Notes: generated from the letters alone by a model not told the origin. A stretch of 64,000 nt of DNA from Burkholderiales bacterium (GCA_035649495.1 DASRJL010000110.1:37219-101218); one strand, 5' to 3'; numbered from the stretch's first letter, positions 14,527 to 62,757 are shown. Numbers and translations: made by a program.

Positions 14527-14555
14527 TTGACCGAATTTGCGTCAGGGGCTAATAT
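14527..14555 (+). promoter_or_regulatory. Sigma-70-like promoter (TTGACC - 17 nt - TAATAT)
   Basis: -35 element at 14527-14532 and -10 at 14550-14555, with a 17-nt spacer. It is the only obvious promoter upstream of the endonuclease ORF and the tRNA-Asn gene. Confidence 0.5.
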
Positions 14556-14614: not shown

Positions 14615-15037
14615 ATGGATGCGGCCGTAAGGCACACGCAGAACAGCAAATCGGTTGGAGATATCACTCAGTCGCAGGTGATGGCGGCTTTGTTGAAGCA
14701 TGGGAAGAACGTGCTCATGCCATTTGGAGATAACTGTCGGTACGACCTCGTAGTGGAACAGGATGGTCTGTTCTTCCGGATTCAATGCAAGACCGGGCGG
14801 ATGAATCGTGGCGCGGTGGTGTTTGCAGTGGCGTCCTCGCAGTATCACAGAGGGGGCAAGCGTCAGGATTATCGGGGGCAGGTAGATGCGTTCGGAATTT
14901 TCTGTCCGGACAATGGGAAGGTCTATATAGTGCCTATAGATGATCTTCCTTTGGCAAGGGAGGCCAAGTTGCGGCTCAAGCCTCCCGGAAATTCGCAGGA
15001 AAAGCGAATAAGATGGGCCGCGAAATATGAGATTTGA
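14615..15037 (+). CDS. PD-(D/E)XK endonuclease, I-Ssp6803I-like (group-I-intron-associated family, PDDEXK_5)
   Basis: The 140-aa ORF contains GDITQSQVMAALLKHG..VLMPFGDNCRYDLVV....FFRIQCKTG and DYRGQVDAFGIFCP...VYIVP. This pattern matches my recollection of the small PD-(D/E)XK homing endonuclease of the Synechocystis tRNA-fMet intron. G+C is lower than the flanks. The stop codon (15035-15037) directly abuts tRNA nucleotide 1. Confidence 0.7.
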   Translation: MDAAVRHTQNSKSVGDITQSQVMAALLKHGKNVLMPFGDNCRYDLVVEQDGLFFRIQCKTGRMNRGAVVFAVASSQYHRGGKRQDYRGQVDAFGIFCPDNGKVYIVPIDDLPLAREAKLRLKPPGNSQEKRIRWAAKYEI

Positions 15038-15353
15038 TCCCCGATAGCTCAGTTGGTAGAGCGACGGACTGTTAACCCAAACCGCTCCGAGCGCTTTGGC
15101 TCAAGGCGGGACAAAAGGCAGCACCGAGGCGAAAGCTTCGGAGGAAAAGGCGTCAAAGTCGGTGAACCCTAACGGCCGCAAGGCCTACGGCAACGCCGAG
15201 CCAAGCCGCCCCGAAAGGGCGGAAGGTGTAGAGACTAGACGGCGCCCGCCTAAAGGCTTCCGGCCCACGGCGAAGGCATAGTCCACGTCCTTGTGAAAAC
15301 AGGGGGCACGGGTAATCCGCAGGTCGCTGGTTCGAGCCCAGCTCGGGGAGCCA
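15038..15353 (+). tRNA. tRNA-Asn(GUU), interrupted in the anticodon by a group I intron
   Basis: Exon 1 (15038-15072) plus exon 2 (15313-15353) give a 76-nt cloverleaf: TCCCCGA TA GCTC AGTTGGTA GAGC G ACGGA CTGTTAA TCCGC AGGTC GCTGG TTCGAGC CCAGC TCGGGGA G CCA. The only imperfection is an A27-C43 mismatch. CCA is encoded. Confidence 0.9.
15073..15312 (+). mobile_element. Group I (IC3-like) self-splicing intron, no internal ORF
   Basis: The core strings GGCAACGCCGAGCCAAGC (15189-15206) and GAAGGTGTAGAGACTAGACGGCGCCCGCCTAAAGGC (15222-15257) nearly match the Azoarcus tRNA-Ile intron as I recall it. GAAA-capped hairpins are present (CCGAGGC GAAA GCTTCGG; CCTTGT GAAA ACAGGGG). A U precedes the 5' splice site and the intron ends in G. 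This is the only split that restores a 7-nt anticodon loop. Confidence 0.9.
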
Positions 15354-15360
15354 TTAATCA

Positions 15361-15397
15361 ATAGGTTATGAGTGTCACTCGTAACCTATTTTTCTTT
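15361..15397 (+). terminator. Rho-independent terminator after tRNA-Asn
   Basis: Inverted repeat ATAGGTTATGAGTG / CACTCGTAACCTAT followed by TTTTTCTTT. Confidence 0.6.
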
Positions 15398-16074
15398 GTA
15401 GGCACTGGTGAAGGCGGTAAATGCCATCGCCCAGAGACCAATACCGATGCCCCGCCACGTACTTGAATGAACGTCACCTGCCGGCTTCGGGTGTCGAACC
15501 GCTTTTCACGACTCGTACAGCGAACGAGATGTTCCAGCTGCGGGCAAATAACGAGCTGCTACGAGTTGGGGGTCGGAATCGAACCGGCCCAGCTTCATAG
15601 GGGAAAATGGAGGGTAACCGGGTCGGCCGTACCCTTACCCGTGCCGTTACCCACTGCCGACCGCCCTACCCTTCCGGCCCGATGTTACAGCCTCCAGGCC
15701 GCGTCGCCCTGGCGCCTTGGCGAAGACCACGGACACCGCCCCGGCGCGCGGCAGCGGCCACCAGCGCGAGCACCGGGGCTCGGGCTGGCGTGAGCCTGAG
15801 ACGTGACCGAGAGCTAGGCGTCTACCTGCGACGCGATGTATGAAAACGCTTGATCGTTGTAACTCGGTCCCTGCCCGAAGTGCGGGAAGCGCGCGGGCAA
15901 GACTCACGAGACCAGTGTGGGAAAGTTTCGGCATTTCGTCATGTGCGGAAACTGCACCTGGGCGCCACCGTCGGCGCGTACCCGTGTAAGCGCTCTGGTA
16001 TTTGGGGTAATCGCATTCTTGGTGTCGCTGATTGTCCACGCGGTCAGACAACCCTACGGTGGTGGGGAGGAACG

Positions 16075-16323
16075 ATGAGTGCATCGATGCCGCCTAACCC
16101 CCGCGTCGAAAGTGACGCTGTCGCGGAGAAAAGGATACGGTTCGGCTGTGGCCTTCTCATCGGAGTCGTTTTGGGCATCATGTCAGCCATTTACTGGAGC
16201 ATCGCGAACGGTTGGTATTTCGCGGCATTGGTTGCTGGTGTCGCGTTGGTGTGCGGCTTCCTCGCCATGAGATACGGCGACGAGTTTTGGTACGAGCTGC
16301 TGAAACTGTGGCGGCCGTATTAG
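16075..16323 (+). CDS. Hypothetical small membrane protein (2 TM)
   Basis: An ATG is preceded by GGGGAGG. Two hydrophobic helices are present (LLIGVVLGIMSAIYW and YFAALVAGVALVCGFLAM). It lies in the low-GC islet. Confidence 0.4.
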   Translation: MSASMPPNPRVESDAVAEKRIRFGCGLLIGVVLGIMSAIYWSIANGWYFAALVAGVALVCGFLAMRYGDEFWYELLKLWRPY

Positions 16324-16784
16324 TGACGTCTAACAACACGTTGGAGCGGACCGTGAATCATGGTGGGCGCATCGTGCTCGCAATCGCGATTCGTGACGAG
16401 CGAAGCCCCAAGCCCGACGCGCTGCTACACCGAAAAGCGCGTTATCGACTGAGCCGCGAGCGCCTCACAGGCGCTGCGGTGGCAAGCAGGTAGGGAGGAT
16501 TGCAGCGATGCCACTAGAAGCCGCGATCTCAGGTATGGCGGAGTCGCGCGGACGGTTGAGGTGTCAACTAATTTGACACCTAATTCACGTCCGTTCGCGC
16601 GTGAGGTGAAGAAGGATGGCGACAGAACACGGGTTCCGTCCGCCGCTAGATCGTTCGCCTGAAACCGTGGTCGTCACGTCACCTATTTTGTCCACAGGTT
16701 CCGCTACCCAACCGACCGAAGCTTTCGCGTCAGCAAGTGCAAGGTCAATAACTGACCCCACAACGCTTGCTGACCCCGCAGCGC

Positions 16785-17723
16785 TTAACAGCGCTTGTGG
16801 CGAGTTAAACCTGCGCTCGCCTTCGTACGTCGCGTCATGACTCCGAGCATGCCGAGGCCGAAGAGGAGCATGGCGTAAGTCGTGGGCTCTGGAACGGCTG
16901 ATACGGATATTGCTGCCATGGAAATTCCGGGCACATCGAAAGATGACCCGGGGATTAATCCCAACGATAATGCGGACACGTAGCCAATGTCGACAAAGGA
17001 TTGGACAGTGGTCTGGCTGATGAATGTCGGCCCGCTAAGCCAGCCGGTCATCAGTTCAAAGGTGGCATCCTGCCCCTGGCTGTTCGTATAACCGGTACAG
17101 CACGCGCCGCCGTCACGCTCGTCCCAATGGCTATTTGCCGTGCCTGGTCCACCGCCCAATTCGACAGGTATGAAGGTCAGGTTCGGTCTGCCTAGTTCTG
17201 CCCTTGCCGCGGCGACGGCGTTCGCTCCCGTGTAACGACCACTGCCGGTTTGGTAAACCCCGTTCACCCCCCACAGCGTACCGAAACCCATCACGTGGGC
17301 CATTTCATGCAGTACCACCGACAAAAAGGTACCGTCGCTCTCCATGTCTTGGACATCGGCCGTGTCAAACTGCATAGTGCCGCGAGTCGAGAGCCAGTAG
17401 CCGCCCTGACGCTTGAGCCCTGCGAAACCCGGACCCGCTTGTCCCAGTATCCCTCCGACACCATCGATAGATATCGCGGATGCATTGATGGTGAGTCCCG
17501 TGATACTGATACCTGGCTGATATGCTGGCAGCAGGCTTTCCCACAAATCCGCCGCCTCGGTGAAAACGGCCTGCTGCGTGTTACTCAGTCCACCGGTGAA
17601 GTTCAGGTTGATACTGAACGGACCCGCCCCTACCCCCTTAGATAACAGAAGGAGCACCGCGACGGCGAAGATTCGAAATCTACCGGCAAAAGTAAGCGCA
17701 AAACGATTGATCGAGATATTCAT
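16785..17723 (-). CDS. Secreted zinc metalloprotease (leishmanolysin/M8-like HExxH) with C-terminal PEP-CTERM sorting signal
   Basis: It has a signal peptide, the HEMAHVMGF zinc motif, and a C-terminal VPEP + TM + RRTK tail (PEP-CTERM/exosortase tag). Confidence 0.75.
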   Translation of the reverse strand: MNISINRFALTFAGRFRIFAVAVLLLLSKGVGAGPFSINLNFTGGLSNTQQAVFTEAADLWESLLPAYQPGISITGLTINASAISIDGVGGILGQAGPGFAGLKRQGGYWLSTRGTMQFDTADVQDMESDGTFLSVVLHEMAHVMGFGTLWGVNGVYQTGSGRYTGANAVAAARAELGRPNLTFIPVELGGGPGTANSHWDERDGGACCTGYTNSQGQDATFELMTGWLSGPTFISQTTVQSFVDIGYVSALSLGLIPGSSFDVPGISMAAISVSAVPEPTTYAMLLFGLGMLGVMTRRTKASAGLTRHKRC

Positions 17724-18180
17724 ACAAATCTCCGCTGGTCAACTATTGACAAATCGTGCCGTCGTCTGCGTTCGCCACGCTCTGACAAGGTGGAACCTTC
17801 TGAAGACTTTACGTGCGCCTTCTCTTTATGCGTGCCCTCTTTCGGCAAAAATTATAGCGGGTTGAATGGGTGCAATGCCAGCGAAACCAATCGACTGCCA
17901 CACTGCCGGTACTAGATCTTGCGCCATAAAAGATGTAGTGACCAACTGAGGAGAACGCCACGACATCAGGTAAAACTCACCATAGCACTGCGGCTGAGCG
18001 GTTCAATCAGACGTTTGGTCTACTACTGACCGCATATGGCGGATGCGCCAGAAACGAAGGCCCGCGTGGGGCCGGCCTGATTCGTGAGCTCGGGTCGGTG
18101 GACCCGCTCAGAACTGGATCAAAATGCTCTCGGGGAAGGGTGAAACCAGTGAAGTAACCTGGCGCCCTTCGAGATACAAA

Positions 18181-18444
18181 CTATGTGATCGAGTTGGGCC
18201 GTCCTTCGGCATCTCCAATCGACGACCCTGGGTCCATCAGAGGTTCGGTGTGCCTCCGTTTACTAACCATTCTAACCATCTCACCAATAACGCAACCAAT
18301 AAAGGCGGACGCAGCCAGCACTAAGCCAAAAAGCAGAACGCCATTCCAGACGCCGAAGTAGATCGATGCCAAGACGCAGAGAATCATCGACAGCGGCGCG
18401 CAAATCGCGATGACAATCACCAGTGCATCCCGCAAAAACTGCAT
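18181..18444 (-). CDS. Hypothetical membrane protein
   Basis: Three hydrophobic segments follow MQFLRDAL. No family was recognised and the start is uncertain (the track ORF extends to 18501). Confidence 0.35.
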   Translation of the reverse strand: MQFLRDALVIVIAICAPLSMILCVLASIYFGVWNGVLLFGLVLAASAFIGCVIGEMVRMVSKRRHTEPLMDPGSSIGDAEGRPNSIT

Positions 18445-18670
18445 ATGGTTCTCCGTGTAACCACATGGAGCAAGAAACGGGCCCACGGAAGCGTACTTCA
18501 CATAATCAGCAGGTTAACCAGCATGTAGCGCGCATGCAGGCTTAGTTTGTAAAGTTTTCCGACACAAGACCAGGCTATGGATTCCCCGAGATGGTGCAGA
18601 GATACAACGTTGGCGAAGGACTTGAACCTCAAGCTGGACTAACTTGCGCCGTGGTTTTGTTTCCGCCGAC

Positions 18671-18868
18671 TTACCCGGCCCTGATGCCGGCTCCCTTCAC
18701 CACTTTCGAATAGCGCGTGCTCTCCGAGTGCAGCAGCGCTGCGAATTGCTCCGGCGTGCTCGGCGCGGAAATCATGTCCTGCAGCCTGAACGTCTCCTGC
18801 ACATCCGGCAGTCGCAGCGCGCGCACGAGGTCGGTATTGAGGCGCGCGACAACGGAGGCGGGCATCAC
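18671..18868 (-). pseudogene. Remnant of a Bug/TctC-family substrate-binding protein (C-terminal ~60 aa only)
   Basis: PASVVARLNTDLVRAL.LPDVQETF......ISAPSTPEQFAALLHSESTRYSKVVKGAGI matches the conserved C-terminus of the intact Bug proteins in this window (for example 30713..31702). An in-frame TGA lies immediately upstream and no N-terminal part is detectable. Confidence 0.55.
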
Positions 18869-19175
18869 ACCTCATGCCAGACTGCGTGCCGCTATTGTGC
18901 CGATCCCCGCGCACGCAACCGATTGCGAGCATGCGCCCGGCGCCTCATGAGAGCAGAACTCACGCTTACCGGAACTAAGTCACGTACGTGCCGGGCCGGA
19001 GTTGAGATGGGATTCATGTGACCGCGGTTTTTGTCAGAAAACTTTACACTTGCCGGGCCATGAACCCGGCCGGCTTGAGCTTTTGTTCGCGTATTCAGCC
19101 ACATAGGAGCAGCGGCCCAGATATTGCTTGAAAAACAAGATGTCTTTGTAAAGCTCAGGGAGAGGGAGAGCGATC

Positions 19176-20192
19176 ATGGTGAGTAAATTGATTCCGGTCA
19201 TGATTGCCATGATCGGCGGACTGACGCTCGCGGGACCTGCCGCTGCGATCGTCATTCGCGACGGCACGTCAGATAGCAGCTACATCGATCTGGCCAATAC
19301 TACCCGTTACAACAGCGTCGGTCAGATCTATGGCACGGACAGCAGCGGCGGCTTCGCCGCATCCGGCGTCCTCATTTCACCAGACTGGGTATTGACCGCG
19401 GCGCATGTAACCTCCGGCGCCCTGTCGTTGAAATTCTATCTCGATTCCGGCGGGGGCTGGAGCAGCTTCGCGACACGAGATGGCGTAAGCGCCGATCGTT
19501 GGTACTCGTATTCGAAGTGGACGGGCGACTTGAATTCCGGTTATGACATCGGTTTGTTCCATCTGGGCACCGGCGTTGGCTGCGGAATTTCGTTCTCCTC
19601 CTCCATCGGCGGGTGCGCCGCAGAGCGATACAGCGGCACGAGCGAGCTCGGCCGGATCGGCACGGAGGTGGGTTTTGGAATGACCGGCACCGGCTCGACC
19701 GGTGCGACTACGTTCGACGGGCTCAAGCGAGCCGGCGAGAACATGGTCGATGCTGTTCTCAGAACCGCCGGCGGAACGAACCGCATTCTGCTTGCCGACT
19801 TCGATTCAGGATTATCTGCGGATAACAACTTCGGCAGCGGCTCGCCGCTGCCGCTCGAGTCCATGATAGGACCGGGAGACAGCGGGGGCGGTCTGTTCGA
19901 GCAGATTGACGGGCGTGAGTTCCTGACCGGTATAACCTCTTTCGGGTGGGGCCGGCTGGACGGAGATCCGGACTCCGATTATGGGGACGCGGGCGGATGG
20001 ACGCGCGTCACGTACTTCAACTCCTGGATCGACAGCGTAATGAACGGGACAGCAGGCGGCGGGGGAAAGCCTCCCAAAGGGCGTAGCGCGGGTATGCAGG
20101 CAACAGCGGTGGAGTTGCCGGAGCCCGCGACCCTGCTCCTCTTGATCCTCGGCATCGCCGGGCTCGGATTGAGCCGACGCAGTTTGGCGTAG
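19176..20192 (+). CDS. Trypsin-like (S1) serine protease with C-terminal PEP-CTERM sorting signal
   Basis: It has a signal peptide, TAAHV (His), GDSGGG (Ser), and a C-terminal LPEPATLLLLILGIAGLGLSRRS tail. Confidence 0.8.
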   Translation: MVSKLIPVMIAMIGGLTLAGPAAAIVIRDGTSDSSYIDLANTTRYNSVGQIYGTDSSGGFAASGVLISPDWVLTAAHVTSGALSLKFYLDSGGGWSSFATRDGVSADRWYSYSKWTGDLNSGYDIGLFHLGTGVGCGISFSSSIGGCAAERYSGTSELGRIGTEVGFGMTGTGSTGATTFDGLKRAGENMVDAVLRTAGGTNRILLADFDSGLSADNNFGSGSPLPLESMIGPGDSGGGLFEQIDGREFLTGITSFGWGRLDGDPDSDYGDAGGWTRVTYFNSWIDSVMNGTAGGGGKPPKGRSAGMQATAVELPEPATLLLLILGIAGLGLSRRSLA

Positions 20193-20250
20193 CGGCGCTC
20201 TCACGCGCCGGTGCCCTGCTTCGCCCCGCGCGAACGAACCACCAAGAACC

Positions 20251-20279
20251 GGCCCGCTTTTGCGGGCCGTTTACTTTTA
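20251..20279 (+). terminator. Rho-independent terminator
   Basis: GGCCCGC TTTT GCGGGCC followed by GTTTACTTTTAT. Confidence 0.7.
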
Positions 20280-20512
20280 TGCGCCCGGCATTCTCGCCCG
20301 CAGTACCCGGTCACGAAACTGACCTTCGGCGATGTCCGATGTGCCGACCCGCGCGAGTCGTCATGAAACGACGCATCGGCTGAAAGGCTGTCGTCTGCCC
20401 GCGACGTTCCCGTGTGTCCTACAACAACCCTCAGAACTCGCTGCATGAGCCCCGGTCGAATTGGTACTGCGGGCAGGGGGAGGACCCGCGTCTTGATGAA
20501 AGGAGTGGCACG

Positions 20513-20962
20513 ATGAACACTCAATCGCAGATGAACACTCGATGGTGGAAAGTCTCGTCGCTTTGCGCGCTCGCGGTGTTGGCAGCGTGCGGCACACGCA
20601 CGGTGATACGCGAGCAACCGATCGTCCAGAACCAGCCGGTGATCGAGCGCGAACGCACGGTCGTCCAGCAACAGCCGTCCGAACGCGTGGTGATCGTCAA
20701 TCCGCCTGCGGCCCCGGTGGAAACCGTTCCGCCCGCGCCTGCGGTGACCGGCTACACCTGGGTCAAAGGGCACTATGAATGGCGGGACGGCAGGTGGGTC
20801 TGGCTATCGGGCCAGTGGGTAGCCGGCACGGTTCGCCCGGTCCCGGCGGCGCCCTATGAAGACGTGACACCTCCCGCGCCGTACTCCGGCGCGCGCTGGG
20901 TGCCCGGCTATTGGCGCTTCGCCGGTAACGACTGGGTATGGGTCCAGGGACGCTGGTTGTAG
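20513..20962 (+). CDS. Lipoprotein with YXWGXW-type repeats
   Basis: The lipobox LAVLAAC is followed by repeated W-rich modules: YTWVKGHYEWRDGRWVW, GQWV, WVPGYWRF.GNDWVWVQGRW. Start at MNTQSQ (20513). Confidence 0.7.
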   Translation: MNTQSQMNTRWWKVSSLCALAVLAACGTRTVIREQPIVQNQPVIERERTVVQQQPSERVVIVNPPAAPVETVPPAPAVTGYTWVKGHYEWRDGRWVWLSGQWVAGTVRPVPAAPYEDVTPPAPYSGARWVPGYWRFAGNDWVWVQGRWL

Positions 20963-20983
20963 CCTCCTGACGGACTGACGGAC

Positions 20984-21004
20984 GGCGGGCCCCGGCGGCC
21001 CGCC
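20984..21004 (+). terminator. GC-rich hairpin after the lipoprotein gene (weak terminator candidate)
   Basis: GGCGGGCC CCGGC GGCCCGCC. The T-run is short and displaced (GGTTTTCC 10 nt downstream). Confidence 0.35.
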
Positions 21005-61717: not shown

Positions 61718-62757
61718 GGCGCCGTTTCCCTGCCATAGTGGCGCTTCCAGGCGTACCGGGCATGAACTGGAGCGCGTGCGCGTGCCTGATCGGAGCAGCC
61801 CTGGTTTCCGGGGCTGCGTATGCCGCCCCGGCCGCGCCAGCGAAGGCCGACGACTACCCTTCGCGCCCGGTCCGCTACATGGTGCCGTTCGCGCCGGGCG
61901 GCGCGGCGGATTTCGTCGCCCGCCTCATGCAGCCCCGGCTGTCTGAATTTCTCGGCCAGCAGGTGGTGATCGACAACCGCGCCGGCGCAGCCGGCAATGT
62001 CGGCATGGAAGTCGTGGCGCGGTCGAGCCCGGACGGGTACACGATCATGCTGGGCAGCGTGGGCCTCGTCGCGATCAACCCGGTCGTATTTCCGAAATTC
62101 CCGGTGATCCCGCTTCGCGATTTCATAGGTATCATGCAGATTACCGATGTGCCGGGCGCGCTGGTGGTGCACCCCTCGGTCCCGGTGAAGTCGGCGAGCG
62201 AGTTCGTCGCCTATCTCAAGGCGAATCCGGGCAAGCTGAACTACGGCTCGCCGGGCGCGGGCAGCGCCAACCGGCTGGAAATGGAGATGTTCCGCATCAT
62301 CACCGGCACGCAGATGACCCACGTGCCGTACAAGGGCGGGGCCGGCCAGGCGGTCACGGCGCTCTTGGGCAACGAAGTGCAGACGATGTTCGTGACGTTC
62401 ACGTCGGTGGTGAGCTTCGTCAAGCAGGGACGGCTGCGCATGCTGGGCGTGGTATCGCCGGAGCGCAACCCGGTGCTGCCGGACGTCCCGGCGATGCCGG
62501 AGCTGGGATTCCCGAAGCTGACGAGCGGGACCTGGCAGGGCCTGTTCGTACCCAGTGGCACGCCGGAGCCGGTGCTGAAAAAGCTGCTCGCCGCGGGCAC
62601 GCGCACCATGGAACACCCGGAGGTGGTGAAGCGCCTCGCCGAGAGCGGCGCGCGCGTCGTCATCAGCAAGTCACCCGCAGCTTTCAGGGAGTACTGGAAG
62701 TCCGAATACGAGCGATTCGCGAAAGTGGTCAGGGACGCTAAGATAGAAACAGAATGA
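61714..62757 (+). CDS. Bug-family (TctC-like) substrate-binding protein
   Basis: Contains YPSRPVRYMVPFAPGGAAD..AR and NRAGAAGN. The ATGA overlaps the previous gene. Confidence 0.85.
   Translation: MRRRFPAIVALPGVPGMNWSACACLIGAALVSGAAYAAPAAPAKADDYPSRPVRYMVPFAPGGAADFVARLMQPRLSEFLGQQVVIDNRAGAAGNVGMEVVARSSPDGYTIMLGSVGLVAINPVVFPKFPVIPLRDFIGIMQITDVPGALVVHPSVPVKSASEFVAYLKANPGKLNYGSPGAGSANRLEMEMFRIITGTQMTHVPYKGGAGQAVTALLGNEVQTMFVTFTSVVSFVKQGRLRMLGVVSPERNPVLPDVPAMPELGFPKLTSGTWQGLFVPSGTPEPVLKKLLAAGTRTMEHPEVVKRLAESGARVVISKSPAAFREYWKSEYERFAKVVRDAKIETE

Follow-up and report, generated by a model that had tools for sequence, protein, structure and literature searches.

A tRNA-Asn gene split by an Azoarcus-like group I intron and adjoined by a free-standing I-Ssp6803I-family endonuclease: a putative collaborative homing module in a Burkholderiales bacterium

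How does a group I intron without an open reading frame (ORF) of its own persist in a bacterial transfer RNA (tRNA) gene? We examined this question in a stretch of 64,000 nucleotides (nt) from the metagenome-assembled genome of a soil Burkholderiales bacterium (GCA_035649495.1, DASRJL010000110.1:37219-101218), here called the window, in which all parts of the locus lie on the plus strand. The locus comprises a tRNA-Asn(GUU) gene (15038-15353) interrupted by a 240-nt group I intron, and an ORF (14615-15037) that ends flush with the first base of the tRNA and encodes a homologue of the homing endonuclease I-Ssp6803I. An original prediction, made by reading the sequence, had described the split tRNA gene and overlooked the abutting endonuclease ORF. 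We propose that the two parts may maintain and spread each other as a collaborative homing module.

The tRNA gene consists of exon 1 (15038..15072), which comprises tRNA positions 1-35 and ends in G34 and U35, the intron (15073..15312), with its terminal G at 15312, and exon 2 (15313..15353), which extends from U36 through an encoded CCA end. The joined exons (15038-15072 and 15313-15353) form a 76-nt molecule that ARAGORN called as tRNA-Asn(gtt), and BLAST matched them at 90-93% identity to intron-less tRNA-Asn genes or att (attachment) sites in a Ralstonia phage record and in Acinetobacter records; the canonical 76-nt tRNA-Asn(GUU) of the original prediction thus stands. ARAGORN without its intron mode reported zero tRNAs across the 64-kb window, and with that mode it reported a tRNA-Thr(ggt) with i(34,240). 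Neither a second tRNA-Asn 3' half nor an uninterrupted Asn anticodon arm was found in the window. The original prediction had held that only one split is compatible with a U at position -1, a terminal G and a 7-nt loop; in fact two fit, Asn(GUU) at 35/36 and Thr(GGU) at 33/34. Nine other split genes (exons 83-99% identical) permit the Asn split only. Because of the exon similarity, the P1 wobble on U35 and these nine homologues, we assign the Asn identity, and the region 15038-15353 is a tRNA-Asn(GUU) gene split between anticodon positions 35 and 36 by a group I intron, at the site originally proposed. Two pairs of the T stem showed compensatory changes when compared with the homologues, and the window locus was found identical in at least eight independent soil or rhizosphere metagenome assemblies.

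We drew the paired regions P1-P9 and the cloverleaf by hand and then counted pairs after aligning the window with a homologue from a Betaproteobacteria metagenome-assembled genome (L012, intron 84% identical) and with a partial metagenome copy (L021). P1 (15069..15121) pairs CUGU/U (15069-15073) with the guide GGCAG (15117-15121) and encloses a hairpin in its loop, L1 (15082-15109). P2 (15124..15141) is a hairpin with a GAAA loop which, compared with L012, had one pair changed on both sides and two on one side, with the pairing kept. The catalytic core (15149..15283) contains P3 (15149-15154 with 15238-15246), P4 (15159-15164 with 15194-15199), P5 (15168-15190), P6 (15200-15227), P7 (15233-15237 with 15279-15283) and P8 (15247-15272). 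P6a showed two compensatory CG-to-UA pairs, P7 (GACUA/UAGUC) was invariant, and one pair of P8a occurred as AU, CG and UG. The core is followed by the P9 hairpin (15286..15310), also with a GAAA loop, in which three pairs varied on one side across the three sequences and remained paired. Standard pairs made up 97.4% of the cells of the alignment, compared with 31-45% in slid controls, and none of 500 shuffles attained the observed pairing values. Seven pairs changed on both sides, and they were located in P2, P6a, P8a, the T stem and the inner L1 hairpin. The only exceptions to kept pairing were this inner L1 hairpin, where L012 has a differing hairpin that was left unaligned, and an A27-C43 mismatch present in both full-length sequences. 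All the helices of a group I core from P3 to P8, including the P3/P7 pseudoknot, could be drawn with support from the comparison, and the core strings and GAAA loops named in the original prediction are all present in the sequence.

Both ends of the intron also conform to a group I intron: U35 forms the U·G wobble at the 5' splice site, and the last intron base, 15312, is a G. The exon side of P1 is invariant, so that P1 cannot display covariation; the guide GGCAG nevertheless followed the P1 loop in every Asn intron lineage, and the first base of the Asn introns was U or C, paired as U·G or C-G. The P1 loop spans about 43 nt, including the inserted hairpin of 28 nt. In L012 another hairpin occupies this position, and the insert of L113, an unrelated Asn intron, is larger still. 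The minimum-free-energy fold recovered the P1 region in the window, L012 and L113, in agreement with the original proposal of a guide about 45 nt into the intron and an extended P1 loop.

Rfam Intron_gpI (RF00028), proposed originally as a check, matched 15087-15305 end to end in a 501-nt search (31.9 bits, E = 2e-6), so that the match was obtained, at a score that lies under the gathering score of 50. Such a score is expected: as Williams 2020 (bioRxiv 10.1101/2020.01.27.920355) points out, bacterial introns are missing from the Rfam seed, and cut-offs of 18-20 bits were used in that study. Introns at the same site in L022, L120, L132 and L113 scored 60.8-78.8 bits, above the gathering score. 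No ORF was found within the 240 nt of the intron, and over 163 nt its core shared 74% identity with a tRNA-Leu(UAA) intron. Identity was likewise 74% over 187 columns to what we take to be the sequence of the Azoarcus tRNA-Ile intron, a value used as a lead only. The intron thus has a core resembling that of the Azoarcus intron, as the original description of an Azoarcus-like, ORF-less insert had it, with an unusual hairpin inserted in the P1 loop. The similarity to the tRNA-Leu(UAA) intron and to the presumed Azoarcus sequence points to subgroup IC rather than IA.

The ORF upstream of exon 1 (14615..15037), and therefore outside the intron, encodes 140 amino acids, and its TGA stop codon abuts tRNA position 1. 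The product matched Pfam PF11645 with E = 6.7e-40 (136.7 bits, cut-off 26.1) and the I-Ssp6803I chain of PDB entry 2OST with E = 3e-8, and it had no match among the NCBIfam profiles. Its AlphaFold model had a mean predicted local distance difference test (pLDDT) of 85.8, and the best Foldseek match was again 2OST (template-modelling score 0.70, E = 5.8e-9), well above Holliday-junction resolvases and SPARDA nucleases. Among 26 sequences including 2OST, the motif GD..YD..Q.K was conserved with D44, Q57 and K59 invariant and G38-D39 nearly so; these residues are putatively catalytic. The ORF is thus a free-standing PD-(D/E)XK member of the I-Ssp6803I homing-endonuclease family, and the NCBI name of the window protein is 'group I intron-associated PD-(D/E)XK endonuclease [Burkholderiales bacterium]'. 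Viral contigs yielded no close relative of this endonuclease. The ratio of non-synonymous to synonymous substitution rates (dN/dS) of the endonuclease genes was 0.04-0.21 with synonymous sites saturated, which indicates strong purifying selection. Compared with L132, the proportions of non-synonymous (pN) and synonymous (pS) differences were 0.100 and 0.70 for the endonuclease, and 0.152 and 0.59 for the flanking aminotransferase gene.

Some homologues (P0077 and P0072) had lost or shifted the stop codon. The C-terminus of P0077, ...YEIRSPIAQLVERRTVK, corresponds to exon 1 of tRNA-Asn translated through into the intron, so that the protein by itself reveals the abutment to a split tRNA-Asn gene.

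A scan of metagenomes with the pattern G/TAATCCG...GGTTCGA, which requires a G before exon 2, recovered nine further complete split tRNA-Asn genes and truncated copies in L021 and L029; together with L012, the complete genes amount to ten. Seven of the ten were found at the same locus as in the window, i.e. uvrB-aminotransferase-(asmA-like). At least five intron lineages were represented, including that of the window, with mutual identities of only 48-67%. This shows that the split tRNA-Asn arrangement is common in soil metagenomes. A scan of a genome collection with a strict core-plus-junction pattern returned L012 as its sole match.

We then compared the DNA between the neighbouring gene and the tRNA. 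In the window, a promoter-like site (TTGACC-17-TAATAT, 14527..14555, by consensus scan only) precedes the endonuclease and is the presumed driver of the endonuclease-tRNA unit. The motif TTGACC...TA(A/T)(T/C)AT, together with a GCGCGTT-like motif, was found immediately 5' of the tRNA in three loci without endonuclease (L124, L022 and L066), and the same promoter motif was found 5' of the endonuclease leader in L139, L133, L132 and L082. In L124, the 68 nt from the asmA-like start to the tRNA include TTGACC-17-TATCAT and, after it, 15 nt that are directly followed by the tRNA, whereas the alleles bearing the endonuclease have the promoter motif, a leader of about 58 nt, the ORF and the tRNA. 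The ORF therefore arrived as a cassette of about 480 nt inserted between the tRNA promoter and tRNA position 1, and given this placement the endonuclease messenger RNA and the pre-tRNA probably form one transcript. An intrinsic-terminator-like hairpin followed by a T run lies downstream of the tRNA (15360..15400).

The association of the two parts was examined from both sides. Starting from endonuclease homologues with 68-85% identity (P0030, P0053, P0072, P0005, P0010 and P0062), a search blind to the intron, all six look-ups placed the stop codon 0-7 nt from an intron-split tRNA-Asn gene; all six loci had a 221-nt intron of a second lineage (B). Among the ten intron loci, which had been found irrespective of the endonuclease, three (L028, L082 and L132) carried an intact homologue in the same position (79-84% identical), one had a remnant and six were without it. 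The remnant belongs to L012, which shares the intron lineage of the window (A) and has a different gene neighbourhood; it consists of 54 C-terminal amino acids with an internal stop. An intact endonuclease combined with a lineage A intron was found in the window only. The endonuclease thus occurs with two intron lineages sharing only about 50% identity, and the window intron resembles the tRNA-Leu intron more closely than it does the other Asn lineage. L124, L022, L066, L120 and L131 lack the cassette at the same syntenic locus. One feature of a collaborative module is thus seen here, namely a free-standing endonuclease beside an ORF-less intron, with presence/absence polymorphism.

We consider it somewhat better than an even chance that the endonuclease and the ORF-less intron at the split tRNA-Asn gene constitute a two-part collaborative (trans) homing module. 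In such a module, RNase P would cut the shared transcript at the 5' end of the tRNA, and the intron would excise itself with GGCAG as its guide, relying on the G·U pair at U35 and on its terminal G (15312), so that a normal tRNA-Asn would result. The endonuclease would cut an uninterrupted tRNA-Asn gene in the anticodon stem-loop, as I-Ssp6803I does with tRNA-fMet, the candidate target being the 21 base pairs (bp) of the uninterrupted tRNA-Asn core, GACGGACTGTTAATCCGCAGG. The intron would abolish this cleavage site and protect its carrier, and repair of the break would transfer the intron to the cut allele, accompanied less often by the cassette, which lies 35 bp from it. Loss of the intron would be penalised by the same logic, which could lead to long-term retention of both parts. 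We favour collaborative homing because of the strict neighbourhood of the two parts, the two unrelated intron lineages, the clean empty sites, the decayed copy and the excess of loci with the intron only; the six intron-only loci out of ten fit an intron that co-converts more easily than the endonuclease. More tentatively, and with rather less than even confidence, we regard the locus as a variant of such modules in which several interchangeable ORF-less introns serve as the immunity element, the intron is retained in an addiction-like manner, and the seat is a chromosomal, probably essential tRNA gene.

Several observations weigh against this proposal. The pattern of the metagenome scan, with its G before exon 2, makes the sample blind to intron-less alleles at the locus, and therefore the association between endonuclease and intron may only reflect an intron fixed in the clade. 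At synonymous sites, the endonuclease (pS 0.70) has diverged as much as the aminotransferase (pS 0.59), which makes its divergence look as old as the host genes and suggests long vertical co-inheritance rather than recent homing. Distant family members (46-54% identity) adjoin tRNA genes that have no group I intron, so that lodging of this family at tRNA borders needs no intron. Finally, Rfam at gathering thresholds returned no match in the whole window, as expected from 31.9 bits against a gathering score of 50.

The first three points lead to an alternative that we consider unlikely and still worth real weight, namely that the endonuclease is an ordinary free-standing ('intronless homing') element which targets the tRNA 5' border or leader, or another feature of the tRNA, and immunises the gene by its own insertion, while the intron is an old, vertically inherited bystander. 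The distant homologues next to intron-less tRNA genes (L137, L142, L143, L144 and L145) would be explained in this way, and so would the placement of the cassette exactly at tRNA position 1 in all the close relatives, the frequency of intron alleles without endonuclease and the synonymous saturation equal to that of the flanking gene. On the other hand, the DNA 5' of the insertion point differs among loci, with either the asmA-like gene or, in L135 and L136, the aminotransferase 11-18 nt away. Because the upstream DNA is not conserved, a conserved target would have to be situated within the tRNA, and there the intron is the sole difference from an empty allele. The solved relative recognises the anticodon region of a tRNA gene, according to the title of a cited reference, and all the close homologues examined (six out of six look-ups) adjoin a split tRNA-Asn. 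It is improbable that the PD-(D/E)XK protein was instead domesticated by the host, as a defence or repair nuclease or as a factor acting on pre-tRNA or intron RNA, and was kept in place by the shared tRNA promoter. Domains of the PF11645 type are among several phage-defence candidates (PMC10952713), and PADLOC gave a weak match to its model 'HEase'. The strong purifying selection and the amino-acid changes, which are fewer than in the aminotransferase (pN 0.100 vs 0.152), also agree with domestication. Its absence from six orthologous or related loci and its decay in L012 correspond, by contrast, to the pattern of a dispensable selfish gene, and no partner genes were conserved beside it in the compared loci. 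To our knowledge, the PD-(D/E)XK endonuclease fold has no RNA-binding or maturase role, which also counts against domestication.

Two further alternatives concern the tRNA gene itself. We consider it very improbable that this is a dead pseudogene with an intron that is not spliced and a tRNA that is not made. The Rfam score below gathering, the unusual 28-nt hairpin in the P1 loop and the A27-C43 mismatch in the anticodon stem could be taken as signs of decay. Yet, throughout 20 helices, every change relative to L012 is compensatory or a wobble, save for the inner L1 hairpin and the shared A27-C43; L012 has the same A-C pair; L113, with its large P1-loop insert, scores 78.8 bits; the identical locus recurs in at least eight assemblies; and both a promoter-like and a terminator-like site are present. 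Hardly credible at all is a tRNA-Thr(GGU) gene with its intron at 33/34, even if ARAGORN in intron mode calls it so and this split also provides the U(-1), the terminal G and the 7-nt loop. The exons are 90-93% identical to tRNA-Asn, the wobble G of P1 pairs with U35 whereas U33 pairs with an A, the nine homologous split genes permit the Asn split only, and the identical miscall is documented for Asn 35/36 introns (PMC13011429). The two identities predict different spliced junctions: ...GGACUGU/UAAUCC... for Asn, and CU/GGUAAUCC for Thr, which would give the loop CUGGUAA.

The window intron and the Azoarcus tRNA-Ile(CAU) intron, of subgroup IC3, are alike in the architecture of P2-P9 and in the GAAA loops on P2 and P9, and presumably share long identical core strings. 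The Azoarcus intron is located at 36/37 of tRNA-Ile. It therefore occupies another tRNA and another site, and it has a short P1, in contrast to the P1 loop of about 43 nt with its hairpin in the window. The tRNA-fMet intron of Synechocystis PCC 6803, which encodes I-Ssp6803I, also splits a bacterial tRNA in the anticodon loop, and its endonuclease belongs to the same family as the window protein by sequence, fold and motif. I-Ssp6803I is encoded within its own intron, whereas the window endonuclease is free-standing at the tRNA 5' end, its intron is ORF-less and its target is putative.

The original prediction had placed Asn(GUU) outside the known intron hosts, a statement that is outdated: the class Asn.4Ug is among the 21 classes of intron-split bacterial tRNAs catalogued by Williams 2020 (bioRxiv 10.1101/2020.01.27.920355), as quoted in PMC13011429, and Nakagawa et al. 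2026 described Asn and Asp introns at 35/36 and demonstrated precise in vitro self-splicing of two members, one of each (PMC13011429). Introns at 35/36 numbered 28 in 4,934 complete genomes, with 19 in Patescibacteria and one in Pseudomonadota, and 25 of the 28 belonged to subgroup IA; ARAGORN and tFind tend to miscall the Asn 35/36 genes as Thr 33/34 (PMC13011429). The published Asn 35/36 introns and the window intron share the tRNA, the insertion point, the U(-1), the terminal G and the Thr miscall. The former are nearly all IA and mostly from Patescibacteria, with an HNH endonuclease (where present) inside the intron, whereas the latter belongs to Burkholderiales, is Azoarcus-like, has a hairpin in the P1 loop and has a PD-(D/E)XK endonuclease outside the intron. 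It is thus a Burkholderiales, Azoarcus-like member of the already described Asn 35/36 class, and neither the host tRNA nor the site is new.

Collaborative homing itself is known from phages, where a free-standing endonuclease and an ORF-less intron act together in cyanophage psbA, and where T4 mobE is associated with I-TevIII (PMC3984707, PMC2790892). The phage systems and the window locus both have intron alleles without endonuclease. The phage cases involve protein-coding genes and enzymes of the HNH or Endo VII type, and for them the intron insertion site was demonstrated as the target; the window, by contrast, combines a chromosomal tRNA gene, a PD-(D/E)XK enzyme under long-term purifying selection and a putative target.

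In the literature searched, we came across no report of a chromosomal split tRNA gene directly abutted by a cassette for a free-standing I-Ssp6803I-type endonuclease. Split tRNA genes of this kind escape annotation or receive a wrong name: ARAGORN is silent without intron mode and reports Thr with it, and the Rfam score stays under threshold. The latest survey of bacterial tRNA introns sought endonuclease genes inside introns only, and concluded that most introns lack them and that mobility is limited. If the endonuclease targets the intron insertion site, collaborative homing as known from phages would also act on bacterial chromosomal tRNA genes. Surveys would then have to search beside introns and not solely inside them, and the persistence and movement of bacterial tRNA introns 'lacking homing endonucleases' would be explained.

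More distant members of the endonuclease family were found in other settings. In a Deltaproteobacteria metagenome-assembled genome (L142, JAOKMR010000001.1, 1128-1717), another tRNA is separated into two pieces by a 53%-identical homologue and a complete tRNA-Thr(GGU), and the final 10 nt of the ORF are the first 10 nt of the tRNA-Thr. The 5' piece of the broken tRNA occupies 1128-1161 (acceptor GCCGCCG) and the 3' piece 1675-1717 (acceptor CGGUGGC), and the break is close to the anticodon loop; apparently, an endonuclease-plus-tRNA cassette has entered one gene of a tRNA array. In another tRNA array (L137/L138, 1501-2005), a 54%-identical ORF runs into an intron-less Asn(GTT)-like tRNA body whose acceptor strands are unpaired. 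ARAGORN gave no call for this body, the Rfam tRNA model matched it over model positions 5-66 only, and it may be a chimeric pseudo-tRNA. Distant PF11645 homologues were also found 1 nt from the 3' end of a convergent tRNA-Lys(UUU) (L144, 599-1115), 68 nt from a tRNA-Ala(GGC) (L145, 1201-1751) and inside an array of 15 tRNAs (L143). Lodging at tRNA genes seems to be a habit of the entire PF11645 family.

Most matches to the metagenome pattern were unrelated tRNAs, e.g. Thr(UGU). L017, L040, L125 and L128 were rejected as introns, being 3'-half repeats of the integrated-element type, and L114 was rejected as unrelated. L016, L039, L093 and L129 appeared group-I-like at first and proved to be ordinary tRNA-Ser(GCU) genes with the match within the variable arm. 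Partial tRNA-Asn 3' copies were located downstream of a full gene in L136 (~2260-2330) and L017 (5366-6160), as left by elements integrated at tRNA-Asn; in L017 the tRNA-Asn is intact and intron-less, and the 3'-half repeat lies about 640 nt further on. The 3' half of the window tRNA (15311-15348) matched about 45 mycobacteriophages (Charlie, Xeno, Phrann and others) over 38 nt at 97%; the matching sequences lie within their immunity or transcriptional repressor genes and are presumably the attP (phage attachment site) cores for integration into tRNA-Asn.

Downstream of the tRNA, the stretch 15400-21000 had a guanine plus cytosine content of 57-60%, compared with about 65%, and contained no tRNA-Asn repeat that would mark an integrated island. 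It encodes PEP-CTERM-tagged peptidase-like proteins, one M8-like (16785-17723) and one trypsin-like (19176-20192).

The core of the window intron also matched 1,264 resistance plasmids of Escherichia, Klebsiella, Salmonella, Acinetobacter and others at about 74%. In the sole copy examined, that of pCTX-M3 (L001, NC_004464.2, 2452-2750; about 61823-62121 of the record), we found an unannotated tRNA-Leu(UAA) split by a 213-nt group I intron (U34/...G/A35). ARAGORN called the joined exons as tRNA-Leu(taa), and the insert scored 36.8 bits on Rfam Intron_gpI. This split gene is located between a hypothetical gene and an 'AAA family ATPase' adjoining aac(3)-IId.

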